NCBI GenBank assembly: GCA_027484965.1
Contig: JAIXRY010000006.1
Coordinates: 1,738 to 65,737, forward strand
Reading direction: 5' to 3'
DNA: 64,000 nucleotides
DNA from: a bacterium
GTDB taxonomy: Bacteria > Patescibacteriota > Minisyncoccia > Phycocordibacterales > UBA9973
The notes below the pieces were generated by a model. That model worked only from the letters and a program-made list of their open reading frames with translations, did not search any database and was not told the DNA's origin. Every line of letters starts with the position of its first letter. Positions within the stretch are counted from its first letter, which is position 1. Of the stretch, positions 520 through 20,070 are shown piece after piece. The position numbers and the translations under genes are program-made.

Positions 520-791
520 TATTTAAAAATTAATAAAAATCAAAAAACGCTCTGACGAGTGTTTTACTTTAGAACTCATTTTTAAATAGACTCTGAATAT
601 GTTTAAAAATTCGGGGTTTATTTAAAAATGGGTTCTGTCGATAATATAACATTTTTATCTTATTTTTCAAAATAACAGTATATTTAAAAACATATATATT
701 TAAAAGTTTTTGGTATTCTTTTCCACAATAAAATATCTTTCGCTAGTTGAAGTTCCTATTCAATCTGAAGACATTGTTGTATAATAAGTAA

Positions 792-1325: not shown

Positions 1326-1330
1326 ACTGT

Positions 1331-1699
1331 ATGAAAATTAAATTCACTTCAGTTTTGATTGGCGTAAAAGATATCCTCAAATCAAAAATATTTTATGAAA
1401 ATGTTTTTGGTGTCGTTTTTGATGAAGTGAGACCGCCTTTTTCAAGTTTTATTTTGAATGGAATTGAGTTTCAAATTGAAGAAAATTCTGCGGACAGATC
1501 CTCTAATTGGGATAAAAAATACTTAGGAACTCCAAAAGGTCTTTGTTTTGAAACAGATAAGATAGAAGATTTTTTAAAAAATGTTTCATCTAATAGGGGA
1601 AATGTATCTGAGATAAAAACGTATTCTTGGGGCTATAGGGAAGCAGATTTTTCAGATCTAGATGGCAATTCTTTTATTGTTGAACAAAAAATAATTTAA
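1331..1699 (+). CDS. glyoxalase/VOC-family small protein (putative)
   Basis: 122 aa with beta-alpha-beta-beta-beta-like pattern (FYENVFG...GIEF...DLDGNSFIV) typical of the VOC/glyoxalase fold. It is followed by an intrinsic terminator. Confidence 0.45.
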   Translation: MKIKFTSVLIGVKDILKSKIFYENVFGVVFDEVRPPFSSFILNGIEFQIEENSADRSSNWDKKYLGTPKGLCFETDKIEDFLKNVSSNRGNVSEIKTYSWGYREADFSDLDGNSFIVEQKII

Positions 1700-1703
1700 A
1701 TTA

Positions 1704-1732
1704 AAAACCCTCGAAATTTCGGGGGTTTTTTG
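1704..1732 (+). terminator. rho-independent terminator (CCCTCGAAATTTCGGGGG + T-run)
   Basis: GC hairpin followed by TTTTTTGG immediately after the stop of the 1331-1699 ORF. Confidence 0.7.
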
Positions 1733-1737
1733 GTATT

Positions 1738-4700
1738 ATGGAGTATATGAAAAAAGTGGAAACATATAATCATTTAAAGATAGAGAAAAAGTGGCAAAAG
1801 TTTTGGGACGAAAAGAAAACTTATCAAACTCTCTCTGTAGACAAGGCAAAGGTTAAAGGGCTTAAACCTTATTATGTACTTGATATGTTTCCGTACCCAT
1901 CTGGAGCAGGTCTACACGTAGGCCACCCTCGTGGATATATTGGATCTGATGTCTTTGCTCGCTTCAAAAGAATGCAAGGATTCAACGTGCTTCATCCAAT
2001 GGGATTTGACTCATTTGGTCTTCCCGCTGAACAATACGCCATCAAGACAGGGAAGCACCCAGGTCCATTTACTGATTCTCTTGTAAAAAAATATAAAAAG
2101 CAGTTAGAGATAATTGGTTTCTCTTATGACTGGTCACGCGAAGTGGAGACACATTCTCCAGAGTATTACAAATGGACTCAATGGATATTCTTACAACTTT
2201 ATAATAGTTATTATGATACAAAGAAAAACAAAGCAGAGAGTATTGAGACTTTGATAAAATATTTTAATAAAAATGGAAACAAAGATTGTAATGCTTTCAC
2301 AAATGATAGTGCAATTTTCTCAGCGCTTGAGTGGAAGAATTTTACTGAAAAAGAAAAGCAGTATGTGCTCATGAGTTATAGACTTGCGTATGAAGGATAT
2401 GCAGAAGTAAACTGGTGTCCGGAAATGGGAACAGTTCTTGCAAACGATGAAATCATTGAAGACAAAAATGGAAATATGGTTTCTGAGCGCGGAGAATATC
2501 CCGTAGAAAAGAAAATGATGCGTCAATGGTTCATGCGAATTACAGCATATGCAGATAGACTTATCTCAGGTCTTGATGAGATTGATTGGTCTTCTTCTAT
2601 AAAACAAACTCAAAAGAATTGGATAGGGAAATCAGAAGGTTCAGAAATAACTTTCTATATTGAAGATAAAGAATTTGGAAATTTTATTAGTAATGTAGAT
2701 ATATTTACAACACGTGCAGACACCCTCTTTGGTGTTACATATATAGCACTCGCAATTGATCATCCAATTGTTGAAAGACTACTAAAAGAACAAATTACTA
2801 ATTGGGATCAAGTATATACATATATACAAGAAGTAAAAAAACAAGAAAAAAATGATCTAAAAGAAATCACAGGCATAAAACTTGAAGGTATTGTAGCGAA
2901 GCAATCATTTTTAGATATTGAAATTCCTATATATTTAACTAATTATGTTCTTTCAAATTATGGTACAGGTGCAGTTATGGGTGTTCCTGCACACGATGAA
3001 CGTGATTTTAAATTTGCAGAAAAATATGATTTACCTATACAAGAGGTAATCATTCCTTCGGTTATAGACCTCTCAAACCCTCCACAAAAAGGAAAAGAAA
3101 CAAAAACAAGAAATACAGTTCATGTTATTGTTTATAATAAAAAAACAGATTCATTTTTAACTTTACGTTGGAAAAAATTTGATTGGCATACAATTGTACT
3201 TGGAGGTATAGATGATGGAGAGGATGTTATTAATGCTGCTCTTCGAGAAGTCAAAGAAGAAACAGGGTATTCAAATCTTTTATTTAAAAGAATTCTTGGT
3301 GGAAAGATTGAGGCAAAATATTTTGCAGCTCATAAGAATGAGAACAGAACAGCTATAACAACTGGAGTTTATTTTGAGTTGATTGACGAAACAAAAGTTG
3401 ATATTTCTCAAGAAGAGAAAGATAATTTTGATATTGAATGGGTTAAATCTTCAGATTTTTTTACAAAGAAAATGACTAATTCAGAGCTACCTTTCTGGAT
3501 TGAAAGACTACAAAAAGGAAAAAATGAAGCTTTTTGTGATTATGGAACATTAATTAATTCAGGTGACTTTGATGGTATGGATTCAGAATATGCTCGTACA
3601 AAAATTACCGAAAAGGTTAAAGGAAAAATTGTTACCAAGTACAAAATGCGTGATGCAATATTTGCACGCCAAAGGTATTGGGGTGAGCCAATACCGCTTA
3701 TTCACACAAAAGACGGTCTCATTGAAACTGTAAAAGAAAAAGACCTTCCACTTGAACTTCCAAAAGTAAAATCTTATCAACCTAGCGGTAATGGAGAGTC
3801 ACCACTTTCAAGTGTGTCTTCTTGGGTTAAATCTGGTTATGAGACTAATACAATGCCTGGTTGGGCTGGGTCTTCTTGGTACTTCTTGCGCTATATGGAT
3901 CCAAAAAATAAGAAAGAGTTTGCAAGTAAAGAAGCTCTTTCATATTGGAAACAAGTCGATATGTATATAGGTGGAACAGAACATGCAACAGGTCACTTGC
4001 TCTACTCACGTTTTTGGCACAAATTCTTAAAAGATATTGGATATGCAAAAACAGAAGAACCATTCAAAGCTCTTAAAAATCAAGGTCTTATTCTTGCTAC
4101 GGATGGAAGAAAGATGAGTAAGCGCTGGGGTAATGTTATTAATCCAGATGAAATAGTGAAGACTTATGGAGCAGATACTCTTCGTGTGTACGAAATGTTT
4201 ATGGGCCCATTTGAAGCATCTCAACCTTGGAATACAGAAAGTATTATTGGGTCACGTCGCTTTGTTGAGCGTGTATTTAGACTATCGGTTAGTGTGTTAG
4301 AAAATAATATAAAAGTTTCAAATAAAGAAAGTTTGAGAGCTCTCCATTCTATTATTGAAAAAGTTACGAGTGATATACAAAATTTTTCTTTCAATACTTC
4401 TATTTCAGGAATGATGATTGCTCTTAATACTTTTGAAAAAGAAAATCAATTATCAAAAAATGATTTCCTAAAATTCCTCTCACTTCTCGCACCTTTTGCT
4501 CCACATATAGCAGAAGAGTTATGGAATAAATTTGGACAAAAGGGAAGTATTCACACTTCAGTATTTCCAAAAGCTGACAAAAAATATTTAGCACAAGAAG
4601 AAGTTATTATTCCTATCTCAGTAAATGGAAAAGTTCGTGCGGAAATAATAGTTTCTCCAAAAATTTCACAAGAAGATATAGAAAATATTGCAATAAATAA

Positions 4701-4785
4701 CGAAAAAGTGAAGGTGTGGATAGAGGGAAAGGAAATTAAAAAATTTATTTACGTACCTGGCAAGATTGTGAATATAGTCATTTAA
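1738..4785 (+). CDS. leuS: leucyl-tRNA synthetase with an inserted Nudix hydrolase domain inside the CP1 editing domain
   Basis: HIGH motif (PYPSGAGLHVGHPRGY), KMSKS (KMSKRWGN), CP1 landmarks TTRADT and GTGAVMGVPAHDERD, and the anticodon-binding C-terminus. About 145 extra residues (aa ~455-598) contain a perfect Nudix box GGIDDGEDVINAALREVKEETGY. Confidence 0.9.
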   Translation: MEYMKKVETYNHLKIEKKWQKFWDEKKTYQTLSVDKAKVKGLKPYYVLDMFPYPSGAGLHVGHPRGYIGSDVFARFKRMQGFNVLHPMGFDSFGLPAEQYAIKTGKHPGPFTDSLVKKYKKQLEIIGFSYDWSREVETHSPEYYKWTQWIFLQLYNSYYDTKKNKAESIETLIKYFNKNGNKDCNAFTNDSAIFSALEWKNFTEKEKQYVLMSYRLAYEGYAEVNWCPEMGTVLANDEIIEDKNGNMVSERGEYPVEKKMMRQWFMRITAYADRLISGLDEIDWSSSIKQTQKNWIGKSEGSEITFYIEDKEFGNFISNVDIFTTRADTLFGVTYIALAIDHPIVERLLKEQITNWDQVYTYIQEVKKQEKNDLKEITGIKLEGIVAKQSFLDIEIPIYLTNYVLSNYGTGAVMGVPAHDERDFKFAEKYDLPIQEVIIPSVIDLSNPPQKGKETKTRNTVHVIVYNKKTDSFLTLRWKKFDWHTIVLGGIDDGEDVINAALREVKEETGYSNLLFKRILGGKIEAKYFAAHKNENRTAITTGVYFELIDETKVDISQEEKDNFDIEWVKSSDFFTKKMTNSELPFWIERLQKGKNEAFCDYGTLINSGDFDGMDSEYARTKITEKVKGKIVTKYKMRDAIFARQRYWGEPIPLIHTKDGLIETVKEKDLPLELPKVKSYQPSGNGESPLSSVSSWVKSGYETNTMPGWAGSSWYFLRYMDPKNKKEFASKEALSYWKQVDMYIGGTEHATGHLLYSRFWHKFLKDIGYAKTEEPFKALKNQGLILATDGRKMSKRWGNVINPDEIVKTYGADTLRVYEMFMGPFEASQPWNTESIIGSRRFVERVFRLSVSVLENNIKVSNKESLRALHSIIEKVTSDIQNFSFNTSISGMMIALNTFEKENQLSKNDFLKFLSLLAPFAPHIAEELWNKFGQKGSIHTSVFPKADKKYLAQEEVIIPISVNGKVRAEIIVSPKISQEDIENIAINNEKVKVWIEGKEIKKFIYVPGKIVNIVI

Positions 4786-4861
4786 TCCACTCGGAAAATT
4801 GTGCTGATTGAGGTATAATGTCTTAGTTACAAGAAGTTAATTATTATCATTTATACTTTAT

Positions 4862-7234
4862 ATGGATCCAGTACAACAACCCTCTAAAAAGGTAAGTTTG
4901 CTCAATAAACTTTCATTTTTTAGTTTTATATCAACTATTGTTCTTTTGCCTATATTCTTTATTCCAGGAACAACAATCTCTTTGGATATTGCAAAAGGTT
5001 TTATCCTTGTATTAGGAGTATCTCTTTCATTTTTGTTTTGGCTTATTGCAAGACTGGTTGATGGAGTTTTTACTATTCCAAAAACACCACTCATAACATC
5101 ACTCCTTGCTCTTGTTGGTGTGTTCTTTATATCAGGTCTTTTTTCCAAGTCGCCATATAAATCAATATTTGGACAAGGTTTTGAGCTGGGTACAGCTGTA
5201 TCAATGCTTGTAATGTTCCTTATCTTTTTCTTGTCTGCCACTCATTTTCAAATAGAGTCAAGAATCAAGAAGCTTTTTGGTGGATTGTTTGTAACTTTCT
5301 CTCTCGCAATTATTTGTACTGCAATCATGGCTTTCTTCGGTAACAAAGCCATGATTGCAAATTTCTTCGCACCTGTTGCGGGTGGAAGTATGATTGGTGG
5401 TTGGAATGATTTTGCTATTCTTGCAGGACTTGTGGCAATACTTTCTCTACTAGGTCTTCAGTTTATTGAAACAAAGAAAATAGCTAAAATTGGACTATCA
5501 CTTGGGTTGGTGTTGTCTATTTTAGTGTTAGGTATAATTAACTTCACTTCAGTATGGTATGTTCTTGGAACTATAGCTCTTATTGTGTTTGTATACTCTC
5601 TCTCTATTTCAACTCCTTCTGACAATGCTTCAAATCCTAACGAAAAACAACTTCCTCTTGCTCCATTTTTTGTTGTTCTTGCATGTCTATTTTTCCTTCT
5701 AGGAAATAGTTTGGTAAGTGATTTTGTTTCAAATAAATTAGGATTTTCTAATTCAGAAGTTCGCCCATCTCTGTCTACTACATTTACTGTTGGAGGAAAA
5801 TCTCTAATCAAAAATCCTCTAAGGTTTGTTGTTGGTGCTGGACCTAATAGATTTTCACAAATGTGGGCAGAATATCGTCCTGCAGATTTAAATCAAACAA
5901 TGTTCTGGGATACACGTTTTAATTCAGGATTTGGACTAGTTCCATCTCTAATGCTTACTACAGGTTTGATTGGTATTGTTGCATTTATATGGTTCTTGAT
6001 GGTTTTCTTATTTACAGGATTTAGAACGATTATTAGAAGTCTCCGAGATAGAGATGGAGGCTTTATGTTGATTGGTACTTTCTGTAGTGCGCTATATCTA
6101 TGGATATTTGCAATCATTTATGTACCAAGTCTTTCTTTGTTTGGAATGGCTTTCGTAATGACAGGACTTTTTGTTTCAATATTAGTAAAAAGAAAACTTC
6201 TTCCACTCCATGATTTCTCATACCTGAACGATCCAAGAAACAGTTTCTTTGCTATTCTTGCAATTATTGTTTCTGTAATGATTACGGTTTCAGCTGTTTA
6301 TCTGATTATTGGAAGATATGCAAGTATTTCTTCATTTAGTAATACAAACAAATCAAAAGATTTAAACGACGCAGAATACAAAATAATTAGAGCTATTCGT
6401 CTGTCTAATAATAATGATGTTTATTATAGAACTCTTTCTGATTTGTATCTTACAAAATTAAATAATCTTCTCAGTGAAAATAAAGACAATCTTAAGTCTG
6501 TAGAAAGTGATATTCAAAGTACTTATTCAAACTCTGAAGCTGCAGCAAGACAAAGTACTGTTATTGACGCAAGTGATCTTTTAAACTGGCTTCAACTAGG
6601 AAAAGTTTATGAGACAGGCGTTGCTTTGCAAAACAAAGAATCATACGAACTTGCTAAAAGTGCATACGAGCAAGCAAAATTGTTGAGTAAAAACAATCCA
6701 AGTCTTACTCTCTCTCTTGCTCAATTAGAAAAGACAAACAAAAATAATGAAGGAGCAATATCTTTTGCAAAAGAAGCTCTTTCTCTAAAAGGTGACTATG
6801 TAAATGCATATTATTTCTTGGCAGGTATTGCTTTTGAAGCAAATAATAAAGAAGATGGTTTTTATTACTTGAATCAAGCAATAAAAACAAATCCAAACGA
6901 TCCTAATGTTTACTTTACTGTAGGAGCAACAAAGTACAATCAACAAAGTTATGATACTGCTGTGCAAGATTTGGAAAGAGCTGTAAGACTTGCTCCTTCA
7001 TCACTTGATGCACGCTATATATTAGCTCTTGCGTACAACAAAGCAGGCCAAAAGAGTGATGCAATTTCACAATTAGAATTTATTCTAAAAATCGCTCCAG
7101 ATAGTGAGACTGTAAAAAAAGCATTAAATGATATAAAAGGTGGAGTTACTACACCAGCAGAAACAGTAGATACAGCATCTACAGACACTTCAGCAAATTT
7201 GACTGACGATAAAAAGACCACAAAGAAAAAATAA
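4862..7234 (+). CDS. polytopic membrane protein with C-terminal TPR repeats (O-antigen-ligase-like topology; function unknown)
   Basis: About 10 predicted TM helices in the N-terminal 450 aa. The C-terminal 300 aa carry repeated TPR-like 34-aa units (AYYFLAGIAFEANNKEDGFYYLNQAIKTNP...). Confidence 0.5.
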   Translation: MDPVQQPSKKVSLLNKLSFFSFISTIVLLPIFFIPGTTISLDIAKGFILVLGVSLSFLFWLIARLVDGVFTIPKTPLITSLLALVGVFFISGLFSKSPYKSIFGQGFELGTAVSMLVMFLIFFLSATHFQIESRIKKLFGGLFVTFSLAIICTAIMAFFGNKAMIANFFAPVAGGSMIGGWNDFAILAGLVAILSLLGLQFIETKKIAKIGLSLGLVLSILVLGIINFTSVWYVLGTIALIVFVYSLSISTPSDNASNPNEKQLPLAPFFVVLACLFFLLGNSLVSDFVSNKLGFSNSEVRPSLSTTFTVGGKSLIKNPLRFVVGAGPNRFSQMWAEYRPADLNQTMFWDTRFNSGFGLVPSLMLTTGLIGIVAFIWFLMVFLFTGFRTIIRSLRDRDGGFMLIGTFCSALYLWIFAIIYVPSLSLFGMAFVMTGLFVSILVKRKLLPLHDFSYLNDPRNSFFAILAIIVSVMITVSAVYLIIGRYASISSFSNTNKSKDLNDAEYKIIRAIRLSNNNDVYYRTLSDLYLTKLNNLLSENKDNLKSVESDIQSTYSNSEAAARQSTVIDASDLLNWLQLGKVYETGVALQNKESYELAKSAYEQAKLLSKNNPSLTLSLAQLEKTNKNNEGAISFAKEALSLKGDYVNAYYFLAGIAFEANNKEDGFYYLNQAIKTNPNDPNVYFTVGATKYNQQSYDTAVQDLERAVRLAPSSLDARYILALAYNKAGQKSDAISQLEFILKIAPDSETVKKALNDIKGGVTTPAETVDTASTDTSANLTDDKKTTKKK

Positions 7235-7237
7235 TCT

Positions 7238-8935
7238 ATGGTTAAGCGTGTTATCGAGGTTTTAAGTCGCGAATTTTCTAATGTGCATCAAGCGGCGCTC
7301 CTTTTGGGAGTAGCTGCTTTTTTGTCTCAAATGCTGGGACTTGTTCGAGATAGGTTGCTTGCCAACATAATTGGACCTTCTACAAATCTTGATATTTATT
7401 ATAGTGCGTTTCGTATTCCTGATTTTCTTTTTGTTTCTGTTGCTTCATTGGTATCTATCACTGTTCTTATACCTTTTATTGTTGATGCTCTAAATAATGA
7501 TAGTGAATCAAAAGAAAAAGCTAGACTTTTGTTCTCAAATATATTTACAGTTTTTCTTCTTCTCATAACTTTTGTTTCATTTATTGTTTGGATATTTTTA
7601 CCCAAAATAATCCCTTTTGTTACTCCAGGATTTTTTGGAGAAGAGCTCCGTCAAGTCATAATAGTGAGTCGAATAATGTTATTACAGCCAATACTTCTTG
7701 GGCTTTCCAATTTATTTGGTTCTATCACTCAGCTTTATAAAAGATTCTTTGTTTGGGCTATTGCTCCACTCTTTTATAATCTAGGTGTTATATTTGGAAT
7801 TATTTTCTTTTACAAAAGCTTTGGAGTTGTAGGGCTTGCTTTTGGAGTTGTCATTGGAGCATTTATGCACTTACTCATACAGCTCCCAGTCTTATTTAAG
7901 TATAATTTCGTTCCTAAAATATCAAGTCCAAAAGTTTGGAAAGAAACAGGAAAGGTTTTTCTTCTTTCAATCCCAAGAACTATAGGGCTTTCTTGTAATA
8001 GCATCGCAGAGATTGCTATTATTTCTCTCGCTACAACATTTACTGTTGGTTCTGTGTCTGTGTATCAGCTTTCGTTTAATATGGAATCATTTCCAATAAC
8101 CATTATAGGTCTTTCTTATTCTGTTGCTGTGTTTCCACTTCTTGCATCCCTTTGGAAAAAAGGAGACCATCAAAAATATTTAGAGTATGTTTCTAATGTT
8201 GCACGGCAGATTATATTTTGGTCATTGCCAATAATTTCTCTTTTTGTTGTTCTTCGTGCTCATATTGTTCGTGTTGTTCTTGGTTCAGGGAATTTTTCTT
8301 GGACACATACACGACTTGTGGCAGCTTCTCTAGCGCTGTTTACTCTTGCTGTGATTGGACAGGGGATGATACATCTTTTTGTGAGAGCGTATTATGCAAA
8401 AGGTGATACTTACAAACCTTTGTTTGTTAATATTCTTTCAGCTAGTTTTATTATATTATCTGCACACCTCCTTTCTTCTTTATTTGCTAGTAATCATACC
8501 TTTAGATATTTTATAGAATCATTACTTCGTGTTGTAGATGTGCCTGGGACAGAAGTGTTAATGCTTCCACTTGCGTATAGTATAGGTTCACTCATAAATG
8601 CTTTCGTTCTTATAATTCTATTTTCTAGAGATATGAAAATGTATGGTTTTAATATAAAACCAATAGCAAGAACTTTCTTATATAGTTTTGGAGCATCCTG
8701 CTTTATTGGGCTCGGCGCATATATGACGCTTAATATTTTTGTACCTCTTTATGATCAATCAACATTTATTGGAATTCTTCTTCAGGGGATAGTGGCGGGA
8801 CTCGTTGGGACTTCTGTCGGATTAATTATCCTCAAATTATTGAAGTCACAAGAACTCGATAGTGCATATGTATCTATTCGTAAGAAATTCTGGAAGACCG
8901 AGGTCGTCTCAGATGCTCAAAATCCTGGATTATAA
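7238..8935 (+). CDS. murJ: lipid II flippase MurJ/MviN
   Basis: N-terminal signature LLGVAAFLSQMLGLVRDRLLANIIG...YYSAFRIPDFLF and about 14 TM segments, 565 aa. Confidence 0.8.
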   Translation: MVKRVIEVLSREFSNVHQAALLLGVAAFLSQMLGLVRDRLLANIIGPSTNLDIYYSAFRIPDFLFVSVASLVSITVLIPFIVDALNNDSESKEKARLLFSNIFTVFLLLITFVSFIVWIFLPKIIPFVTPGFFGEELRQVIIVSRIMLLQPILLGLSNLFGSITQLYKRFFVWAIAPLFYNLGVIFGIIFFYKSFGVVGLAFGVVIGAFMHLLIQLPVLFKYNFVPKISSPKVWKETGKVFLLSIPRTIGLSCNSIAEIAIISLATTFTVGSVSVYQLSFNMESFPITIIGLSYSVAVFPLLASLWKKGDHQKYLEYVSNVARQIIFWSLPIISLFVVLRAHIVRVVLGSGNFSWTHTRLVAASLALFTLAVIGQGMIHLFVRAYYAKGDTYKPLFVNILSASFIILSAHLLSSLFASNHTFRYFIESLLRVVDVPGTEVLMLPLAYSIGSLINAFVLIILFSRDMKMYGFNIKPIARTFLYSFGASCFIGLGAYMTLNIFVPLYDQSTFIGILLQGIVAGLVGTSVGLIILKLLKSQELDSAYVSIRKKFWKTEVVSDAQNPGL

Positions 8936-8950
8936 TACAAAATCAAACAA

Positions 8951-8983
8951 GAGCGGAACCCTTCGGGTTCCGCTCTTGTATTT
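8951..8983 (+). terminator. intrinsic terminator GAGCGGAACCCTTCGGGTTCCGCTC + T-run
   Basis: Perfect 11-bp stem with a CTTCGG tetraloop-like loop, followed by TTGTATTT. A near-identical hairpin with compensatory changes lies at 27995-28019. Confidence 0.8.
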
Positions 8984-9035
8984 CTCTAACACTTTTCCCC
9001 ACAAAAACCTATAAAATCTATACTATAATAAACAC

Positions 9036-11498
9036 ATGTTACGTACTCTCAAGTACTTCTTGAGCCGAGCCTACACGATAGTATCTATCGTGCTTTTTGT
9101 ACTATCTTACGGAGCTCTCAAAGTATCAGCTATATACTATCCTACAGATAACATTACTAACCCTACCTGTGCACCAGGGGACTCTGGTTGTTATGTATCT
9201 CTTCTACCAGACCAAACATCTAAATCAGGTTCTTTACTCTTCTCTAATGGAAATAATCCTTCTTGGACATCTACTACCGGTTTGACTTGGGACAGCACAA
9301 TTAACAACCTAACACTTAATGGAACTAACGATTTAGCGGTCTTGGGTTCTGAAATGATTGGTGCAACAGCAAACAGAGATTTTTCTTCTGATACAGGGAG
9401 TTGGACAGGCTCAAACTGGACTATTGGTTCTGGTGTAATTACTCATACAGCAGGTGCTCCTGATGTGCTTACTCTATCAAACTTGGCACTAACTAGTAGT
9501 CCTGTTGCTGCTACTGTATATCAAATATCATTCACAACAAACACAACAAGCCCTGGAGTTCTTACTGTTTCTATGGGAGGTGTGAATGGTTCTCCTGTTG
9601 GTCACATTGTAGGTACTGTTACTCAAGGTCAAAACATAGAAGCAACTAATGCAACAGAACTTAAATTTACACCAGATTCTGCTTGGGCTGGTACTATTGA
9701 TAATATATCTGTAAAAGTCTTAACTCCGTCTAGTCCAGAACTGACAATTAAAAATCCAGGCCATGTTTTTGGTCTTCAGATTAGATCTGGAGGTTCTGGA
9801 TTAAGAAATGTACATATTGGATACTTGGCTGGATCGAGAGCGACGGGCGGTCTTAGTCGTGTCCTTGTTGGTCACACAGCAGGTACTAATACTCAAGGTG
9901 GTAATCTTGTTTTTATTGGGACAGGTGCTGGCAGTGGACATGTTTTTGGTTTTTCTAATGTTATGATAGGTACATCTGCTGGCGCTAGTAATGTTACAGG
10001 TAATCATGTTGTATTTCTTGGTACAAATGCTGGGAGGTTAGGCTCAAGCGTTATATACTCTACAATTATTGGTAGTAATGCAGGATACTCAAGTCAAGGA
10101 AATTCAAATGTTTTTATAGGTTCTTCTACTGGATATTCTTCTGGGTTAAGTACTGAAAGTGTCTATGTTGGTAATAATGCGGGGTATTCGGCTACTGGTT
10201 CATATAATACTATTTTAGGAACATTTGCTGGTTATAGCCATACAGGGAATTACAATGTAACTATTGGTCATTCAGCTGCAGCTTCGGGTGTAACATACTC
10301 AGGAGCAAACAATATTTCAATTGGTGCTTATGTTAGGCCAATTTTAGCGACAGGAAGCAGACAGTTGAATATTGGAAATGTATTGTACGGCCAAGGTCTA
10401 TATAATGGGACTTCAGTATCAGCTAGTGCTACAGCTGCAGGATCTATTGGTGTAGGTTCTGGAGATAAACTCTCTCGCTTCACAGTCACAGCTCCAGCAG
10501 ACACCACAAACATCGGTGGTACAACCACAGCGAGTTCTTCAACAACCATCACAGGAGTCGGAACAACTTTCACCACATCTCTCGGTATAGGTGATCGTAT
10601 CTCTCTTTCTTCTGCTTCATCTACTTACGCTACAGTTACAGCTATAGCATCAGACACATCTCTTACTGTAAATACTGCTTTAGGTAATGGGACATCTCAA
10701 ACAATTAATCTAAAGAAAAGTATTTTCCGTCTAGATGACGCTTCTAATGTGACTGACTTTATTGTGAATGATCTTGGTAATGTCGGTATCGCAAACTCAA
10801 CCCCCCTCTACACCCTCCACGTCGGCTCTTCATCAATCACCGGCATCGTCTCCCGTTTCCAAAACAGCACCGGAACATGTGACATCAACCCAACAACAAC
10901 ATCACTCTCATGTAGCTCAGACAGAACACTCAAAACAAACATCACAAACCTAAACAACACAACACTCAACCAAATCACTACACTCCAACCTGTAACATAC
11001 ACATGGATAAACGATAACACTAACCAACAACAAACAGGATTCATCGCACAAGACGTAGAACAAATCTTCCCATCTCTTGTATCTACTGATCCTACAACAA
11101 ACCTCAAGTCTTTAAACTACATAGGACTCATACCTTATGCTATAGAAGGTATCAAAGAACTAGACATCAAACTCAACCAACTCTCATCATTAGATACAAC
11201 ACTTCAAGGATCATTCGCTTTCCTTCTTAAAGAAGTACTAGGAAACGTAAGTAATGGAATCAATGAACTCTATGTTAAGGTTGTTAAGAGTGACAGGGTG
11301 GAGACGAAGGAGTTGTGTACTACTGATGGAATATGTTTGAGTGAGAATGATATTAAGAATCTATACCAAATATCTCAAGAAAGAAATCAATCAAATCCAC
11401 AAGTAGCACCACAAAATCCACCAGCACCAGAGACTCCTCCGGAAGAAGTTATTCCAGAAGAATTGCCTCCTCAAGAAAATGTAGAAGTTGTTCAATAA
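9036..11498 (+). CDS. cell-surface phage-tail-fibre-like protein with Gly-rich beta-helix repeats and a C-terminal intramolecular chaperone (peptidase S74-like) domain
   Basis: N-terminal signal/TM anchor. Repeated N(V/I)xIGxxAG units (NVHIGYLAGS, NLVFIGTGAGS, NVMIGTSAGAS, NVFIGSSTGYS...). C-terminal SDRTLKTNI...VTYTWIND...GFIAQDVEQIFPSLV...IGLIPYAIEGIKEL matches the tail-fibre and endosialidase chaperone motif. Pro-rich C-terminal tail. Confidence 0.7.
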   Translation: MLRTLKYFLSRAYTIVSIVLFVLSYGALKVSAIYYPTDNITNPTCAPGDSGCYVSLLPDQTSKSGSLLFSNGNNPSWTSTTGLTWDSTINNLTLNGTNDLAVLGSEMIGATANRDFSSDTGSWTGSNWTIGSGVITHTAGAPDVLTLSNLALTSSPVAATVYQISFTTNTTSPGVLTVSMGGVNGSPVGHIVGTVTQGQNIEATNATELKFTPDSAWAGTIDNISVKVLTPSSPELTIKNPGHVFGLQIRSGGSGLRNVHIGYLAGSRATGGLSRVLVGHTAGTNTQGGNLVFIGTGAGSGHVFGFSNVMIGTSAGASNVTGNHVVFLGTNAGRLGSSVIYSTIIGSNAGYSSQGNSNVFIGSSTGYSSGLSTESVYVGNNAGYSATGSYNTILGTFAGYSHTGNYNVTIGHSAAASGVTYSGANNISIGAYVRPILATGSRQLNIGNVLYGQGLYNGTSVSASATAAGSIGVGSGDKLSRFTVTAPADTTNIGGTTTASSSTTITGVGTTFTTSLGIGDRISLSSASSTYATVTAIASDTSLTVNTALGNGTSQTINLKKSIFRLDDASNVTDFIVNDLGNVGIANSTPLYTLHVGSSSITGIVSRFQNSTGTCDINPTTTSLSCSSDRTLKTNITNLNNTTLNQITTLQPVTYTWINDNTNQQQTGFIAQDVEQIFPSLVSTDPTTNLKSLNYIGLIPYAIEGIKELDIKLNQLSSLDTTLQGSFAFLLKEVLGNVSNGINELYVKVVKSDRVETKELCTTDGICLSENDIKNLYQISQERNQSNPQVAPQNPPAPETPPEEVIPEELPPQENVEVVQ

Positions 11499-11500
11499 TA

Positions 11501-11530
11501 AAAAGCCCTCAATTGAGGGCTTTTTATTTG
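11501..11530 (+). terminator. intrinsic terminator GCCCTCAATTGAGGGC + T-run
   Basis: Hairpin plus TTTTTATTTGG directly after the stop codon. Confidence 0.75.
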
Positions 11531-11606
11531 GTAATGAAAAAAATAAAAAGATATGTTATAGTAATTTATACCTAAATCATTATTAATGATCGGTTAAATA
11601 TTTTAT

Positions 11607-11678
11607 GGCCCTATCGTCTATCGGTTAGGACACATCCTTCTCAAGGATGGAAGCAGGGTTCGATTCCCTGTAGGGTCA
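11607..11678 (+). tRNA. tRNA-Glu (anticodon CUC)
   Basis: Cloverleaf: acceptor GGCCCTA/TAGGGTC, D-arm GTCT..GGAC, anticodon stem CATCC/GGATG with loop TTCTCAA, T-arm CAGGG-TTCGATT-CCCTG, discriminator A. No encoded CCA. Confidence 0.8.
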
Positions 11679-11747
11679 CAAGTTAAAGCAATAAAAAAAT
11701 CCGCCACCAGAATAACTGAAAGCGGATAGTAGATTGATTTTGTAATT

Positions 11748-12095
11748 CTAAAACTCTTTTTGTAAAACTAAACAAAGGTAATTTGAAACTACTGAGGTAG
11801 CAATCATAATATTTTTAAATTTTTCAATCTGATGAGTTGGTAACTGTGAGCAAATAAGCGCACTCATTTGACCAAGAGCATAAGAATGTTGATTGACTTG
11901 CTCTGACTTCATTAAATAAACCCATTGTCTGGTTATTCCATTAGAACTAATAGAGAGTGTCTGATCAATAGTTTCAAGTTGTGTTATTAATTTCTGTTTA
12001 AGATCAGAAGAAATATCTGGATCTTCTTTTAGAGATCTAAGATATAAAATGCTCTCTTCAGAAGCATTTTTCATTAATTCAAAGACTTTTTTCAT
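11748..12095 (-). CDS. hypothetical protein
   Basis: 115-aa ORF with a minus-strand intrinsic terminator downstream (hairpin ATCCGC...GCGGAT, T-run on the minus strand). Confidence 0.4.
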   Translation of the reverse strand: MKKVFELMKNASEESILYLRSLKEDPDISSDLKQKLITQLETIDQTLSISSNGITRQWVYLMKSEQVNQHSYALGQMSALICSQLPTHQIEKFKNIMIATSVVSNYLCLVLQKEF

Positions 12096-12310
12096 ATGGT
12101 TTCAATTAAAAATGATTTATTATATAATAAAATAATTTTATATATTTGTCAATATTATATATACTGCCAGAAAGATATATTTTAATAAACAGCATATAAT
12201 GTCTTATATGTTTCTAAAAGAAGATTAGGTGAGCCCTAAAATAGAAATAATAAATACTAAAATTATATAACTAGAAAAAATACAAAAAGACCTCATTTGA
12301 GGTCTTTTTA

Positions 12311-13360
12311 TTATTCATCATCACTATCTATTTTATCCAAAAGGATTGTTTCGAGTTCTGGAGACGCGCCTGTTATGCGGGTCACATCCTTGTCTATCTT
12401 CTTGAGTTCTTTTCCTGAACTATTGTAATGATTTATCACTGTACCAAGACTTCCACCTAATTTTTTGTGATATTCTTCATACACTTTTAGATGTTTTCCG
12501 AGTTCTTCGACGCGCTTCACGATATCTTTTGCGCTTTCTTCTATCTGCATCGCTTTCAGACCTTGGAGGACTGTTTGGAGATATGCGAGGAATGAAGTAG
12601 GAGATACGATGATCACTTTGTATTTACCAGCGGCGCGTTGAATCAGATTTTCTGTGTCTTCTGTGACTGCGCCGATTTTGTTTACGAGTAAGTCGTAATA
12701 TATTGCTTCATGAGGAATGAACATAAATGCGAAGTCCATTGTGTTGTCGTTTGGCTTTATATATTTTGAAGTTTCTACAATTCTATTTTTCAAATCGTTT
12801 AAGAATATTTTTTCGAAACGTTCTTTTTCGGCAGGGTCATTTGTCTCTGTAATACGATTATAATTCTCGAGAGAGAATTTTGAATCGATAGGGATAATCT
12901 TGTCTTTGACGAAAACTACAGCATCAACAATGTTTCCATCTGGAAAAGTGTATTGCATTTGATAGCTTCCAGTAGGGAGGACATTTTTTAAAAGAGTTTC
13001 GAGATAATATTCACCCAAGATTCCGCGTTGCTTTGGATTTTTCAAGATGTCTTGGAGGTTTTTGAGTTGGTCTGCGAATGAGACTACTTGTTTGTTGGTC
13101 TCGTCGAGACGGGTGAGCTTCTCTGTAATATCACGAATGAGCTTCTGAGATTCTGTGGCTTGGGTTATATTGCTTTTGTTATTCTCACCAATTTTCTCGT
13201 CTACGACACGAGAGAGTTCTTGCATTTGAGAAAGGAGGAGTTGAAGACCTGTATTGTCCTCCTTAACTTCTGGTTTTTTGGAGATTTTTGAGAGAGTTAT
13301 ACTTACAAAAACTATAAGTATAATAACGAGAATTGAGAGAATTATAAGGATTGTTGTCAT
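12311..13360 (-). CDS. rmuC: DNA recombination protein RmuC
   Basis: N-terminal TM helix, a coiled-coil, then RmuC-domain motifs (QRGILGEYYLETLL, IDSKFS, FMFIPHE, IVSPTSFLAYL). Confidence 0.75.
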   Translation of the reverse strand: MTTILIILSILVIILIVFVSITLSKISKKPEVKEDNTGLQLLLSQMQELSRVVDEKIGENNKSNITQATESQKLIRDITEKLTRLDETNKQVVSFADQLKNLQDILKNPKQRGILGEYYLETLLKNVLPTGSYQMQYTFPDGNIVDAVVFVKDKIIPIDSKFSLENYNRITETNDPAEKERFEKIFLNDLKNRIVETSKYIKPNDNTMDFAFMFIPHEAIYYDLLVNKIGAVTEDTENLIQRAAGKYKVIIVSPTSFLAYLQTVLQGLKAMQIEESAKDIVKRVEELGKHLKVYEEYHKKLGGSLGTVINHYNSSGKELKKIDKDVTRITGASPELETILLDKIDSDDE

Positions 13361-13442
13361 GAGATAATTTTATCATAGTTAGTAAATAAAACGAATGTAT
13401 ATAAGGTTTATTTGGAAAATATGAATACAAGATACAAAATAC

Positions 13443-13471
13443 TTGCTTTTTTGTTTTATATATGCTATAAT
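13443..13471 (+). promoter_or_regulatory. consensus-like sigma70 promoter (TTGCTT - 17 bp - TATAAT)
   Basis: -35 at 13443-13448, exact 17-bp spacer, and -10 TATAAT at 13466-13471. It faces a ~770-bp region with no convincing ORF that ends at the terminator at 14215-14250. Confidence 0.5.
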
Positions 13472-13753
13472 ATTTTTAGTTAAGTTCTTTGAGTATTCAC
13501 CTGAATCGCGAACAGGTGATAGTGAAAGCTCAGTTTTTATTTTATATAGAAATTCTGATTAGTGTTGATACTTTATCAGCGGGGTTGTGAAAAATCAGTT
13601 ATCAGAATAATTTCTTTTGGGGTTTGATATATTTCAAATTTATTCTAAAACTCCAAGTAATAAGTAAAGAGCGGATTTTTTATTTAATGAATATCTGCTG
13701 GTATTTTTACCACTTGTGAAAGCATGCAAAAAACTGTCTTAAAGAATTTACTG

Positions 13754-13773
13754 CCACGAACTTATGTTCGTGG
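13754..13773. promoter_or_regulatory. putative LexA/SOS box: 20-bp palindrome CCACGAAC-TTAT-GTTCGTGG (GAAC-N4-GTTC class)
   Basis: Perfect 8-bp arms around a 4-bp spacer, of the same GAAC-N4-GTTC type as the box in the lexA promoter at 52637-52652. Only these two instances occur in the whole window. The ATG of the 71-aa ORF at 13764 lies inside it. Confidence 0.5.
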
Positions 13774-13994
13774 CTTCTTTGTTTTTATTTGCAAAATTAA
13801 TTTTAAATGGTACTCTTTGGTTAGATTACTACTTACAATCGTCCGAACATAAAGGAAACCAAATTCTCTTGAATTGGTTTCGGAAAAAACATCACGGAAA
13901 AGATATGAGTAATAGATTATGTATACCCATAAAAAATGTTTATCATTTTTTCATAGGGTTGTTCTTAATAAAATTTTAAAATACTTGAATTGCA

Positions 13995-14198
13995 GAACTG
14001 AAACATCTAAGTACGCAAATTAAATTCAAGTAAATTCTATGAGTAGTTGCGAGCGAAAGTAGAATAGCCCAAACCATAAAAAATTTTACGATGCGAAACT
14101 ATTTTATGGGGTTGTAGGACTCCCTTGGGAGTATCCTGAGTAATACGAAGTCGGAGATGCTTTGTGTGAATCTGCCGGCACCATCCGGTAAGGCTAAT
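13995..14198 (+). rRNA. orphan fragment of 23S rRNA domain I (E. coli positions ~190-445), probably a pseudogene or derived ncRNA
   Basis: Contains the universal 23S motifs GAACTGAAACATCTAAGTA, AGTAGTTGCGAGCGAAAGTAG (compare AGTAGCGGCGAGCGAA), AGCCCAAACC, GGGGTTGTAGGAC, ATCCTGAGTA and CACCATCCGGTAAGGCTAA. Homology stops abruptly and is followed by a terminator. A weak, degenerate rRNA-like extension may run upstream to ~13930 (CATAGGGT...). Confidence 0.65.
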
Positions 14199-17448: not shown

Positions 17449-20070
17449 ATGCAATCAAAGAAGACAAAAATAGTTCCATCTGACAGTATTATCGTTCATG
17501 GTGCTAGAACTCACAATCTAAAGAATATTTCAGTAGAAATGCCTCGTAATAAGATGGTGGCTATTACTGGTATGTCAGGAAGTGGAAAGTCATCACTTGC
17601 ATTTGATACTATCTTTGCTGAAGGACAGCGTCGCTATGTGGAGTCTCTTTCTGCTTATGCGAGACAATTCTTAAATCAAATGCCAAAGCCAGACGTAGAC
17701 GAAATTACTGGTCTTTCTCCTGCAATCTCTATTGATCAAAAATCTCGTTCAAACAATCCTCGTTCTACAGTGGCGACTATTACAGAAATATACGACTATC
17801 TCCGTGTTCTTTATGCGCGCGTTGGTCATCCTCATTGTCCAGAGTGTGGAGAAGAAATTAAGCGTCTTTCTAATGAAGAAATTGTTTCTTTTGTCTTAGA
17901 AAAAATAAATGAGTTTAAGAAAAATAACAAAAAAGATAAAACAAATTCAAAGGTGAAAACTGTGATGGGTGTAGAATGGAATGAAACAGAACTAGAAATA
18001 TTTGCTCCTATTGTTCGTGGTAGAAAAGGTGAGTATTATCAAATGCTCTATGATCTTCTTGGAAAAGGTTTTCAAGATGTTCGTATTAATGGCGACATGA
18101 AAAAACTTCGCGAAAAGATAGAACTCGCAAAAACAAAGAAACACAATATTGATGTTCTTGTTGATACTCTTATGGTGCACGAGTTTTTTGATAGTATTGA
18201 AGGTGCTCGCATGAGACTCGCAGAGGGTATTGAACGTGCTCTTATTGAGGCTGACGGACTTGTAATAATAAAGATAGGTGATGAAGAATTCCTCATGTCT
18301 TCAAAGTTCTCTTGTCCTAATGATGGATTTTCTTTTCCTGAGGTTGAGCCAAGACTATTTTCATTTAATAGTCCTTATGGTGCATGTCCTACATGTAATG
18401 GGTTAGGTTCAAAATATTTTGGAGGGAGTGAGGTTTGCGATGATTGTAAAGGTGCTCGTCTGCGTACTGAAGCTATGCACGTATTTCTTGGCGGCAAGAA
18501 AACAAACATTGTAGACCTTACAGCACTTTCTATTGAAAATGCGATGAATTTTTTTGGAGATATTAAACTTTCAGAGCAAGAACGTGAAATTGCAAAAGTT
18601 ATAATAAAAGAAATTGAAGCGCGTTTAGCTTTCCTTTTGAATGTTGGACTTGAATATCTATCTCTTAACAGAAAGGCGAGTACTCTCTCAGGTGGTGAAT
18701 CACAACGTATCAGACTTGCTTCACAGCTCGGTTCACGCCTCGTAGGAGCGATGTATGTACTTGATGAGCCGACTATTGGTCTTCATCAAAGAGATAATGA
18801 AAAGCTTATCAAAACACTTGAAGATTTGCGTGATCTTGGAAATACTATTTTGATTGTTGAACACGATGAAGATACTATTTTTGCATCTGATTATATTGTG
18901 GATATTGGTCCAAAAGCTGGTCTTCATGGTGGGCAGGTTGTTGTGGATGGATGGCTTACAGACCTTCTTGATGCGAAGACAAATAAGAGTGGATCACGCA
19001 CTCTCGCGTACCTTCGCGGTGAAGCACGTATAGAAGTCCCAGAAGAAAGACGTACTCGGGATAAGGGCTTTCTCAAAATAACTGGGGGAAATATTTTTAA
19101 TATCAAAAATTTAAATGCCGAGATTCCTCTCGGAAGAATGACAAGTATTACAGGGGTGTCTGGTTCTGGTAAGAGTTCTTTTATGTACGAGATTGTCTAC
19201 AAAAATCTTCAAGCACGTCTTGAGAAAAAATATCGTACAGCTAAAATATTTAATTGTGCAACATTTACAGGTACAGAGTATGTTTCTCGTTCTGTACTGA
19301 TTGATCAATCTCCAATAGGGAGAACTCCGCGTTCTAATATCGCCACATATACCGGAGCATTTACACATATACGTGATCTTTTTGCAGCGAGTGAGGATGC
19401 ACGCTTCCGTGGTTGGAAATCAAACAGATTCTCTTTTAATGTAAAAGGTGGGCGTTGTGAGGCGTGTGAAGGTAATGGACAAATTGCAGTTGAGATGCAC
19501 TTCTTGCCAACGGTGTACGTGACTTGTGATGTATGTAATGGAAAGCGTTTTGATAAAGAAACTCTCACAGTAAAATACAAAAAGAAAAACATTCACGAAA
19601 TATTAAAAATGACTATAGAAGAGGCAAATACTTTCTTTGCTGATATTCCTGCAGTCCATGACCGTGTAAAGACTCTTATAGATGTAGGTCTTGGATATCT
19701 TGAGCTCGGACAATCAGCCACAACACTTTCTGGCGGTGAAGCACAGCGTGTTAAAATCGCTTCAGAGCTCTACCGTCCTCACTTAGAAAAGACTATATAT
19801 CTCTTAGATGAGCCAACGGTAGGTCTTCACTATGATGACGTTGCAAAACTTCTCGAAGTTCTTGAGAAGTTGGTGGTAAAAGGTAATACAGTACTTCTTA
19901 TTGAACATAATATGGATATTATAAAATGTTCAGACTATATTATTGATATTGGCCCAGAAGGTGGAATTGGTGGTGGTCAGATTGTAGCAAGAGGTACACC
20001 TGAAGAAGTTGCAAATAACCCAAAGTCATACACTGGGAAATATTTGAAGAAAATTTTGAAAAATAAGTAG
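17449..20070 (+). CDS. uvrA: excinuclease ABC subunit A
   Basis: Two ABC ATPase modules ([14 protein letters not shown]; [13 protein letters not shown]), signature LSGGE motifs and zinc-finger Cys clusters. 873 aa, somewhat shorter than typical UvrA. Confidence 0.9.

Follow-up and report, generated by a model that had tools for sequence, protein, structure and literature searches.

Here, we describe a gene in a 64,000-nucleotide (nt) stretch of contig JAIXRY010000006.1 from the patescibacterial assembly GCA_027484965.1 (the window, numbered from its first letter), the product of which ends in a Peptidase_S74 (S74) chaperone domain encoded by about 430 nt that are strikingly rich in A and C. 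An earlier reading of the sequence alone had singled out this open reading frame (ORF), which is indeed present in the ORF list with its 820 amino acids (aa), and had taken the AC-rich stretch for a compositionally foreign, acquired module. We consider it likely that the gene belongs to a family of mosaic, S74-terminated fibres in Patescibacteria that resemble the MAT fibres of Bdellovibrio, that the S74 cassette evolves in concert between the copies of this family, and that its codon skew is held by a constraint on synonymous sites. The AC-richness, the near-identity of paralogs and a lowered synonymous divergence fall on the same ~430 nt, as all three tracts coincide. A family-internal cassette that evolves in concert and is constrained at its synonymous sites describes the tract better than a foreign insert does; its codon skew belongs to the cassette lineage and is probably not a fresh import.

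The anomaly occupies a single place in the 64 kb. In a 200-nt sliding profile, the GC skew falls to -0.63 and the AT skew rises to +0.39 at 10800-11100. The A+C content per 200 nt averages 0.481 (standard deviation (sd) 0.054) over the whole stretch, and 10761-11200 is the only region in which it reaches at least 0.66, with a peak of 0.77 (z ~5.3); the AC runs quoted in the sequence-only reading (caacccaacaacaacatcactctc, acaaacctaaacaacacaacactcaacc) are found there as given. The profile shows a sharp 5' edge at ~10785-10791 and a gradual 3' decay to ~11200-11260. In the first 1.7 kb of the gene, the fraction of codons ending in T (T3; A3, C3 and G3 are used likewise) is 0.45-0.72 and C3 is 0.03-0.12, i.e. 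ordinary T3-rich usage; the earlier reading had described this part as T/G-rich, in contrast to the tract. In 10776-11050, T3 is 0.07-0.15, C3 is 0.35-0.62 and G3 is 0-0.03, and from ~10785 onward C3 jumps to 0.53-0.62 with G3 at 0. The ratio NNC/(NNC+NNT) amounts to 0.87 in the tract versus 0.09-0.47 in the 52 other tabulated ORFs. The third-position purine/pyrimidine ratio equals that of the background; in effect, T is replaced by C and the few G by A.

Could the encoded peptide alone produce this composition? With the amino-acid sequence kept fixed and codons drawn from the window's own usage (20,000 simulations, 120 codons), 13 ± 3.3 C-ending codons are expected (maximum 27), while 50 of 120 are observed, a departure of about 11 sd; for T-ending codons, the 19 of 120 observed stand against 55 ± 4.8 in the simulations. 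Thus, the Thr/Asn/Gln-rich peptide adds to the AC-richness yet is not its cause. The sliding-window and codon-usage analyses therefore confirm the compositional anomaly, as a shift between synonymous codons far beyond chance. Both Cys codons are TGT even in the most C-rich cassette copies.

The same tract is shared by several genes. The sister genome CTOTU14240 (GCA_031972855) has at least four genes with the cassette, and comparison of three of these paralogs, which have only the cassette in common, gave identities of 99.5% (398 nt), 97.8% (314 nt) and 92.7% (368 nt). These shared tracts map to ~10842-11239 of the window, which is the AC-rich stretch, and in each of the compared paralogs the codons likewise turn abruptly from T3-rich to C3/A3-rich where the cassette begins. 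The mutual identity of T-rich paralogous S74 modules in other genomes is only 66-76%. The window's own species has a second fibre paralog, which lies on the contig L004 (related loci carry L numbers throughout).

Between the window and the positional ortholog L002, the cassette core is ~94% identical, versus 78-90% for the flanking genes, and it encodes the most conserved part of the protein, with 98% aa identity versus 72-85% for the flanking proteins. We then measured, among codons with an unchanged amino acid, the fraction with a different codon in the window and the sister genome. This fraction is 13/97 (0.13) for the S74 cassette, 0.30 for the leucyl-tRNA synthetase (LeuRS), 0.37 for the TPR membrane protein, 0.45 for MurJ, 0.27-0.29 for RmuC, UvrB and UvrA, and 20/64 (0.31) for the fibre gene's own leader. 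In Fisher tests, the cassette differs from two sets of flanking genes (579/1530, p = 3e-7; 519/1831, p = 1e-3) and from its own leader (p = 0.009), and its synonymous divergence lies 2-4 times below that of the flanking genes.

The gene is a mosaic, the segments of which have different nearest relatives (Table 1). Nucleotide matches on the leader side (72-78%) to L001, L002, L003, L004, L005, L006, L009 and L062 stop at ~9199-9323, mostly at 9266-9269. L001, which sits at another locus, agrees with the window in leader and body and differs in its S74 module; L002, whose LeuRS-TPR-MurJ flank shows 81% identity across 5.3-5.7 kb, agrees in the leader and the S74 cassette, which enclose an unrelated body of ~1.6 kb. 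The domain shuffling suggested by the sequence-only reading, for which alternative C-terminal modules in homologs were to be sought, is supported by these two loci, one of which swaps the S74 module and the other the body. The boundaries of the tracts shared among copies range from 10776 to 10857 on the left and from 11158 to 11355 on the right; in L006, cassette plus tail are colinear with the window (10785-11355). Over all mosaic junctions, the reading frame is intact. Synteny is with L002 upstream and with L062 downstream, and it breaks between genomes exactly at the fibre gene. In L062, the fibre gene is followed by tRNA-Glu(ctc), and the counterpart of the window's first 675 nt (84% identical, NUDIX side) lies directly upstream of it; therefore, an 8.3-kb block (676-8992: a glyoxalase-like gene, LeuRS, the TPR protein and MurJ) was inserted or relocated in the window. 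The breakpoints of this block relative to L062 lie at the leader and the tail of the fibre gene (window 8993-11681 compared).

The assignment of the C-terminal module to the S74/intramolecular chaperone auto-processing (ICA) domains, which the sequence-only reading had proposed, holds because sequence, catalytic motif and predicted fold agree. The Pfam model PF13884 is matched significantly, with E = 8e-17, and S628 and K633 of the SDxxxK dyad are invariant across an alignment of 42 homologs. In a search of Protein Data Bank (PDB) sequences, the chaperone end of the phage S16 long-tail-fibre protein gp37 (6f45) was found with E = 2.5e-5, SSDRTLK being aligned over SSDRRIK. An AlphaFold model of aa 489-820, computed as a monomer, has a predicted local distance difference test score (pLDDT) of 89-97 over ~aa 629-718 and of 85 to aa 728; the best PDB folds retrieved by Foldseek are the ICA domain of MyRF (7dc3; E = 1.5e-4, TM score 0.59-0.64, root-mean-square deviation 1.6-2.6 Å), followed by GA-1 gp12 (3gud) and endosialidase (3gw6). 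The 140 residues upstream of the chaperone are beta-rich in the model at a pLDDT of 33-68. Self-cleavage is predicted just N-terminal of S628 and would release aa 628-820. At the other end, the protein begins with an n-region MLRTLKYFLSR (with KYFLSR), a 17-residue h-region AYTIVSIVLFVLSYGAL and then KVSA directly before IYYP, which reads as a probable cleavable Sec-type signal peptide and not as the membrane anchor assumed earlier. The repeats of the body, formerly called phage-tail-fibre-style, matched no Pfam model even at E <= 1. The 112 homologs of the fibre protein come mostly from uncultured Patescibacteria, and nearly all of them carry PF13884; the closest ones belong to uncultured Paceibacterota, remoter ones to Nomurabacteria, Saccharibacteria and Emticicia (Bacteroidota).

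How could such a gene work and vary? We propose that the signal peptide and the short conserved leader would form the cell-proximal end of the fibre, where the leader presumably is the retained end and, on the DNA level, the 5' homology arm. The long, exchangeable Gly/Ser/Thr-rich body would be the variable surface, while the C-terminal S74 chaperone would drive trimer folding and then cut itself off at S628 by means of the Ser628-Lys633 dyad. By analogy with the other members of the S74 family, the protein may thus be a trimeric, self-cleaving adhesin displayed on the cell surface. The AC-rich stretch is the DNA of the S74 cassette itself, which on this view is a self-standing evolving unit and not a separate foreign insert. 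From the patterns of identity, we infer that the paralogous cassettes of a genome are kept nearly identical through homologous recombination (gene conversion); leader and cassette would then serve as homology arms between which the body is swapped, and the tail behind the cassette may be exchanged as well. Recombination inside the cassette could also join different chromosomal neighbourhoods. The switch from T-ending to C-ending (and from G-ending to A-ending) codons is purely synonymous and goes along with the 2-4-fold lower synonymous divergence.

Several points weigh against this interpretation. The postulated constraint behind the skew might act at any of several levels, be it translation, mRNA or DNA. 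The same-species paralog P0011 on L004, which is of the same TGTCDINP type, has ordinary codons, and so has a third S74 module type in L062; therefore, the factor that maintains the skew is no general requirement of S74 domains. The derived third-position changes in the clade lead away from A and C (C>T 15 versus T>C 4; A>G 8 versus G>A 1), which, at least in L006 and L003, looks like the decay of an inherited state. The low synonymous divergence could reflect recency, by exchange between lineages, instead of constraint. Only one genome with several AC-rich copies entered the comparison, all sequences are metagenome assemblies, and gene conversion is read from identity patterns. Near-identical repeats moreover carry the risk of assembler chimeras, so that part of the mosaic, especially the join of cassette, tail and tRNA-Glu, could be an artefact.

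Is the skew a common property of this cassette? Among 54 distinct copies from a metagenome scan plus a genome scan, about 16 exceed the part of their own gene that lies upstream by at least 0.15 in A3+C3, and none shows a value of -0.15 or lower. The copies with an excess span lineages with 45-57% aa identity, including a Saccharibacteria genome with a background C3 of 0.08-0.10; the window's clade is extreme, with +0.30 to +0.37. Outside this clade, codon positions 1+2 do not track position 3 (r = 0.18, n = 47 distant copies). T-rich copies of the same cassette type occur in L004, L014, L016, L017, L020, L027 and others. That S74 modules are always AC-rich is ruled out by the T-rich module of L062 and by the same-type copies of L004, L014 and L016. 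An AC-rich cassette on a T-rich body within one ORF was found in many independent NCBI, JGI, ENA and Logan assemblies (L002, L003, L005, L006, L008, L009, L018, L033, L050 and further ones); the composition and this arrangement can therefore not be artefacts. A 751-aa protein of Emticicia sp. BO119 (L010; NZ_JACETV010000002.1: 444564-452956) ends in the 'RFQNSTGTCDINPT' type of S74 cassette with 57% identity, and this copy in a free-living member of the Bacteroidota suggests a cross-phylum transfer of the module.

A number of general causes of the skew were rejected. Preferred codons of the genome as a whole do not account for it, since L9, L25, GAPDH and aldolase, a small gene set within the window, use ordinary T/A-ending codons. 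GC-biased gene conversion is excluded as G3 falls instead of rising and CAA, AAA and GAA are used, not CAG, AAG and GAG. With regard to a replication-strand effect, the minus-strand genes of the window have A3 > T3, but their C3 is not raised, and paralogs at other loci share the skew. The context of the neighbouring base is ruled out by a context table in which C3 is 0.09-0.12 whatever base follows. A known or structured RNA is not indicated either, as no Rfam family matches in the tract and the fold energy is no better than that of shuffled sequences (z = +0.9). Two overlapping ORFs run through the tract, one in the +2 frame (10768-10953) and one antisense (10808-11107). Both are expected by-products, as T- and G-poor sequence has few stop codons, and the antisense ORF could not constrain the wobble sites because wobble positions are common to the antisense and sense frames.

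That the gene received its C-terminal module by a recent import, from a phage or an organism with other codon usage, and that the module has not yet ameliorated, is in our opinion unlikely, although several observations speak for it. S74 domains are typical of phage tail fibres, the sharp 5' compositional edge coincides with a homology breakpoint, the third-position changes within the clade go toward T and G as amelioration predicts, and the Emticicia relative (57% aa identity) indicates that the module crosses phyla. A donor, however, did not emerge. Neither the GTCDINPTTTS core nor a relative of the cassette is encoded by IMG/VR viral contigs, and in INPHARED (50,697 phage genomes) the best match has 43% identity over ~60 aa, 42% of the module, so that this collection holds no close phage relative. 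Donor-like codon usage was absent from all ORFs of more than 60 related loci and from the phage matches: mid-GC relatives reach a C/(C+T) of ~0.5, high-GC relatives have G3 of 0.2-0.3 and A3 of ~0.15, and the tract's combination of C3 ~0.4, A3 ~0.4 and G3 ~0 was seen in none of the related loci, higher-GC relatives and phages. The window itself looks cellular. Besides the fibre gene, 52 ORFs with a length of 120 aa or more were tabulated, and 50 of them went into a Pfam scan (the two left out, of 146 aa and 190 aa, lie at 60-62 kb). Among these 50, no phage, integrase or reverse-transcriptase model was matched; all are housekeeping genes or of unknown function. The view of the sequence-only reading that this is a cellular gene and no prophage has thus stood up, in its genomic surroundings as well as in the distance of its phage relatives. 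Its equation of a deviating composition with acquisition has not, as the same AC-rich cassette is found in the sister-genome ortholog plus at least three paralogs, kindred AC-rich copies are spread over many Patescibacteria, and no sampled donor matches. Furthermore, neutral amelioration gives no 2-4-fold lower synonymous divergence unless the import post-dates the split in both lineages. The variable region of a diversity-generating retroelement was rejected separately, as the 64 kb contain no second copy of the segment (template repeat) and the scanned ORFs no reverse-transcriptase domain, and as AAC (Asn) codons stay Asn in all close copies, the differences being ordinary synonymous ones.

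Translational selection is an equally improbable source of the skew by our estimate. It would choose C/A-ending codons, the Watson-Crick partners of G34 and U34 tRNAs, for speed or accuracy, on the rationale that mis-made residues of the chaperone or the cleavage site would poison the whole trimer. The shift is restricted to synonymous sites and keeps the third-position purine/pyrimidine ratio, a strong codon bias coupled to a low synonymous divergence is what selected usage classically looks like, the segment encodes the most conserved part of the protein, and the excess recurs in distant lineages. In addition, a milder C3 excess is stable in the adjoining RmuC gene of three genomes, although C and T there replace each other in both directions. 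Such selection is difficult to reconcile with the lack of the preference in L9, L25, GAPDH and aldolase (fC2 0.09-0.33), with the Cys codons that stay TGT even in the copies richest in C, with the ordinary codons of the same-species paralog P0011 and of the L062 module, and with UvrA and UvrB, which are equally conserved (95-96%) and use ordinary codons.

Alternatively, the G/T-poor strand itself could be selected as a nucleic-acid-level element, either as a homology arm for recombination or as a Rho-loading (rut-like) mRNA; we rate this, too, as rather improbable. In the homology-arm version, the tract would be unstructured and palindrome-poor with a GT-rich complement of the kind that RecA pairs best, and would aid the exchange of cassettes. 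The C/G ratio is 4.6 over 200 nt (C 0.39, G 0.085) and 3.2 over 430 nt, the RNA is nearly unstructured (-23.9 kcal/mol per 300 nt, which is no more stable than shuffled sequence), and 4-mer palindromes number 11 against 21.9 ± 5.8 for the window, i.e. half. In terms of composition, the tract also resembles rut sites, which call for at least 80 nt of C-rich, G-poor, unstructured RNA. It coincides with the recombining segment, its synonymous sites are constrained, and AC-rich copies are homogenised while T-rich paralog copies are not. Low structure and few palindromes, however, follow automatically from the composition, the correlation with homogenisation is based on three genomes, and many family members do without an AC-rich tract. 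Promoter-like matches in the region are at chance level, Rfam has no match in the tract, and any such function would be conjectural. We speculate, as a distinctly improbable variant, that the C/A-only codons are a DNA-level adaptation, a structure-free, palindrome-poor 'recombination handle' with a GT-rich complement, selected for efficient exchange between paralogs and between strains taking up DNA. If so, episymbiotic members of the Candidate Phyla Radiation (CPR) would reshuffle their host-recognition fibres in this way, with chromosome rearrangements at these genes as a side effect.

A strand-asymmetric mutational process is very unlikely. If the template strand became single-stranded time and again, for instance within the 3' tail of an intermediate of recombination begun at the 5' edge, it would suffer C>U and A>I deamination and, by extension, G>A and T>C changes on the coding strand, in a manner likened to vertebrate mitochondrial DNA. 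The third-position purine/pyrimidine ratio at background level fits a T>C change that is ~85% complete and a G>A change that is complete, the sharp 5' edge and gradual 3' decay and the coincidence with the conversion tract would be accounted for, and convergence on the same codons would cut the apparent synonymous divergence without selection. The derived changes run in the opposite direction, however, the skew is not mirrored at amino-acid-changing positions outside the window's clade, the left edge shifts from copy to copy by as much as 80 nt and follows the ends of homology, and no break site or nuclease at the tract is known.

Still less probable is that mosaic and compositional step together stem from the metagenome assembler, which would have fused unrelated sequences at a repeat: the cassette is multi-copy with identities of up to 99.5%, synteny changes exactly at the fibre gene, and the window's own protein is on record once, on a single contig (an exact-sequence look-up returned no second contig), but AC-rich cassettes joined to T-rich bodies without a break in the ORF were seen in many independent assemblies, the reading frame is unbroken over all junctions, L006 is colinear over cassette plus tail, and an assembler cannot create the composition itself. 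A look-up of another protein, P0009, found no contig.

The reading that we prefer, a mosaic fibre family with a concertedly evolving S74 cassette, has a close counterpart in the MAT fibres of Bdellovibrio, which combine a signal peptide, a conserved N-domain and a mosaic fibre with an SDxxxK S74 terminus (Caulton et al. 2024, PMC10769870). Of the 21 MAT fibres, 13 end in S74, which is defined by the SDxxxK motif and was shown to cleave itself off in Bd3182 (PDB 8OJN/8ONB/8ONC), and Bdellovibrio uses these fibres in prey recognition (PMC10769870). Both are cellular, non-phage, multi-copy families of secreted fibres of ~700-1,000 aa in bacteria that live on other cells, and both appear to share the order of signal peptide (putative here), family-wide conserved N-terminal part, long repetitive body and SDxxxK S74 end. 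The patescibacterial fibre also has repeated V-G-x-G-T-T-x-P-x-x-x-L-H-V motifs that are similar to the capping loop; a phmmer comparison with Bd3182 (8ojn) gave a weak match over these VGxGTTxPxxxLHV repeats (E = 0.045). In both systems one end is conserved and other parts are swapped, and a multi-copy repertoire is evident here from the at least four cassette genes of CTOTU14240 and the second paralog in the window's species. The systems differ in phylum, as the Patescibacteria/CPR have a Gram-positive-like envelope, and in the leader, which measures ~45 aa here versus ~130 aa for the MAT N-domain and is likened to it by position only. Moreover, it is the S74 end that is most conserved and evolves in concert here, while the body is exchanged. 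For the patescibacterial fibre, a surface location and ligand binding would be predictions by analogy. The description of the MAT fibres reports no codon-usage or synonymous-site anomaly (PMC10769870). Cellular S74-terminated mosaic fibres are thus known already, and new here are the phylum and the three features on the same 430 nt; in the literature searched, we found no paper that ties S74 proteins to Patescibacteria or Saccharibacteria.

With the ICA domains of phages (endoNF 3GW6, GA-1 gp12 3GUD, T5 pb1, S16 gp37 6F45) and of MyRF (7DC3), the module shares the S74 match, the Ser-Lys dyad and the predicted fold, as well as the C-terminal position behind a fibre, and by analogy a trimer-dependent self-cleavage that releases the chaperone is to be expected. 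Unlike in phages, the fibre gene is surrounded by housekeeping genes, virion genes being absent among the scanned ORFs, its identity to phage domains is at most 43% over ~60 aa, and the protein has a putative signal peptide, which virion proteins lack.

Surface variation by gene conversion of cassettes is known from Neisseria pilE/pilS, Borrelia vlsE and Mycoplasma MgPa. As in these systems, the fibre paralogs share conserved nucleotide segments that flank variable ones; these common parts appear homogenised and would provide the homology arms. All fibre copies seen, however, are complete genes with their own leaders, with neither silent promoter-less cassettes nor a single expression site among them; high-frequency switching is not in evidence for the fibre family, and the conserved arm encodes a catalytic chaperone domain. 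Highly expressed bacterial genes couple codon bias with a low rate of synonymous substitution, and vertebrate mitochondrial DNA has a strand-asymmetric third-position skew. The cassette resembles these cases in its strong synonymous bias with reduced synonymous divergence and in the A+C-rich, G-poor third positions of its sense strand, but its skew is limited to ~430 nt in one gene and is absent from ribosomal-protein genes, and the current direction of substitution misfits the ongoing deamination bias of the mitochondrial case.

Patescibacteria spend their life on the surface of other microbes, and little is understood of the way in which they tell their partners apart; multi-copy, strain-variable S74 fibres are an obvious candidate. 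Should the skew be kept by selection on the nucleic acid or by recombination, it would be a clean natural case of synonymous sites shaped by factors other than codon preference linked to expression. If it were only the relic of a donor, the locus would be an ordinary mosaic adhesin gene.

Table 1. Features of the fibre locus and nearest relatives of its mosaic segments, in window positions
Feature	Position	Strand	Description and basis
Intrinsic-terminator-like hairpin 3' of murJ	8947-8979	+	15-bp stem, 9 GC pairs, plus T tract
Fibre ORF	9036-11498	+	820 aa; ORF list, Pfam S74; predicted secreted trimeric-fibre-like surface protein
Probable Sec signal peptide	9036-9131	+	aa 1-32, MLRTLKYFLSRAYTIVSIVLFVLSYGALKVSA then IYYP; read from sequence
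Conserved leader domain YYPTDNITNPTCAPGDSGCYVSLLPDQTS	9132-9269	+	~45 aa; in all paralogs, behind a signal-peptide-like N-terminus; nucleotide matches, protein alignment
Variable fibre body	9270-10775	+	Gly/Ser/Thr/Asn-rich, NVxIGxxAG-type repeats; ordinary T3-rich codons; only L001 matches
Minor codon-shift patch	10455-10604	+	C3 0.33-0.35; sub-module TVTAPADTT...GIGDRISLSS, also in L001
AC-rich S74 'TGTCDINP' cassette	10785-11215	+	from last capping-loop motif VGIANSTPLYTLHVG via catalytic site to IKELDIKLNQL helix
Pfam Peptidase_S74 (PF13884)	10917-11081	+	aa 628-682; E = 8e-17, 61.7 bits vs cut-off 22, profile 1-57 of 58
Catalytic motif S628-D-R-T-L-K633 (Ser-Lys dyad)	10917-10934	+	S and K invariant; aligned with 6f45
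C-terminal tail of released chaperone (predicted)	11216-11495	+	predicted helix, Cys-x5-Cys, Pro/Glu/Gln-rich end; nearest relative L062
Terminator hairpin AAAAAGCCCTCAATTGAGGGCTTTTT	11500-11525	+	right behind stop codon; read from sequence; also detected as hairpin repeat
tRNA-Glu(CTC)	11607-11679	+	ARAGORN and Rfam; 3' end is a strain-level junction
Mosaic segment: promoter region, signal peptide, leader	8957-9269		nearest: all paralogs and orthologs, 72-78%
Mosaic segment: body	9270-10753		nearest: only L001 (GCA_964586445), 70.9% nt (match 8993-10753)
Mosaic segment: S74 cassette	10776/10785 to 11158-11355		nearest: L002, L003, L005, L006, L008, L009, 83-94%
Mosaic segment: tail	11151-11529		nearest: L062 (GCA_031972175), 77% nt; not L002

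The fibre gene is a separate transcription unit, as hairpin terminators stand on both sides of it (Table 1). Its upstream neighbours are LeuRS, the TPR membrane protein and MurJ, and downstream follow tRNA-Glu(CTC), a small ORF, RmuC and UvrB/A/C. The adjacent tRNA-Glu, to which the sequence-only reading had drawn attention, is relevant as a strain-variable junction but not as a phage attachment site with an integrase. The same-species contig L063 (2525-2963), which is 99.92% identical over window 11673-14196, diverges inside the last bases of this tRNA (11673-11679); beyond the junction it has no tRNA and runs into an unrelated ORF, so that strains differ here, too, from the 3' end of a tRNA onward, and right next to the fibre gene. 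On L004, a Logan contig (SRR30952592) that matches window 18983-23985 with 100% and 24215-28020 with 99% identity, an extra 3.8 kb (5004-8812) lies right behind tRNA-Ala(TGC) and is absent at window 23985-24215. This insert, bordered by a 57-nt near-repeat of tRNA-distal sequence, contains a pilin-like (N_methyl) gene, the second S74 fibre gene P0011 with its ordinary T-rich codons and a 146-aa ORF. Fibre genes are therefore strain-variable cargo adjoining tRNA genes.

Two further departures from the background usage lie near the tract. Just 3' of it, window 11256-11340 holds a patch of G-ending codons (aag, agg, gtg, gag, acg, aag, gag, ttg) with G3 of 0.30 versus ~0.08 in the background, partly kept in L002. 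The RmuC gene (12311-13360, minus strand) shows a gene-wide excess of C-ending codons (C3 0.26, NNC fraction 0.47, patches up to C3 0.47), while uvrA and uvrB beside it have a C3 of 0.10. Two related genomes preserve the excess of RmuC, C<->T changes going both ways at a normal synonymous divergence, and the protein is unusually conserved among Paceibacterota, with 72-81% identity in the 120 best matches listed; E <= 1e-30 was reached by all 8,000 candidates scored. As this excess is milder, stable and accompanied by normal synonymous divergence, RmuC is no model for the cassette. The glutamyl-tRNA synthetase gene (62446-63942, minus strand) has an NNC fraction of 0.43 and a four-fold-site C of 0.21, with patches of C3 ~0.3 at 62779-63228.

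Elsewhere in the window, the LeuRS (1015 aa; 1738-4785, plus strand) is interrupted past its editing domain by a NUDIX hydrolase domain (aa 457-579, E = 8e-13), and the isoleucyl-tRNA synthetase in the related locus L001 carries a His_Phos_1 insertion. Gene orientation flips at ~44000-44600, from nearly all plus (1-44 kb) to nearly all minus (44.5-64 kb). The plus strand has T > A across the whole window, hence A3 > T3 in the minus-strand genes, with no switch of skew at ~44 kb, and the flip is not obviously an origin or terminus. Finally, a 124-nt direct repeat (30111-30234 and 30357-30480; 73% identical, 246 nt apart) lies between the genes for the N- and C-terminal halves of transketolase.

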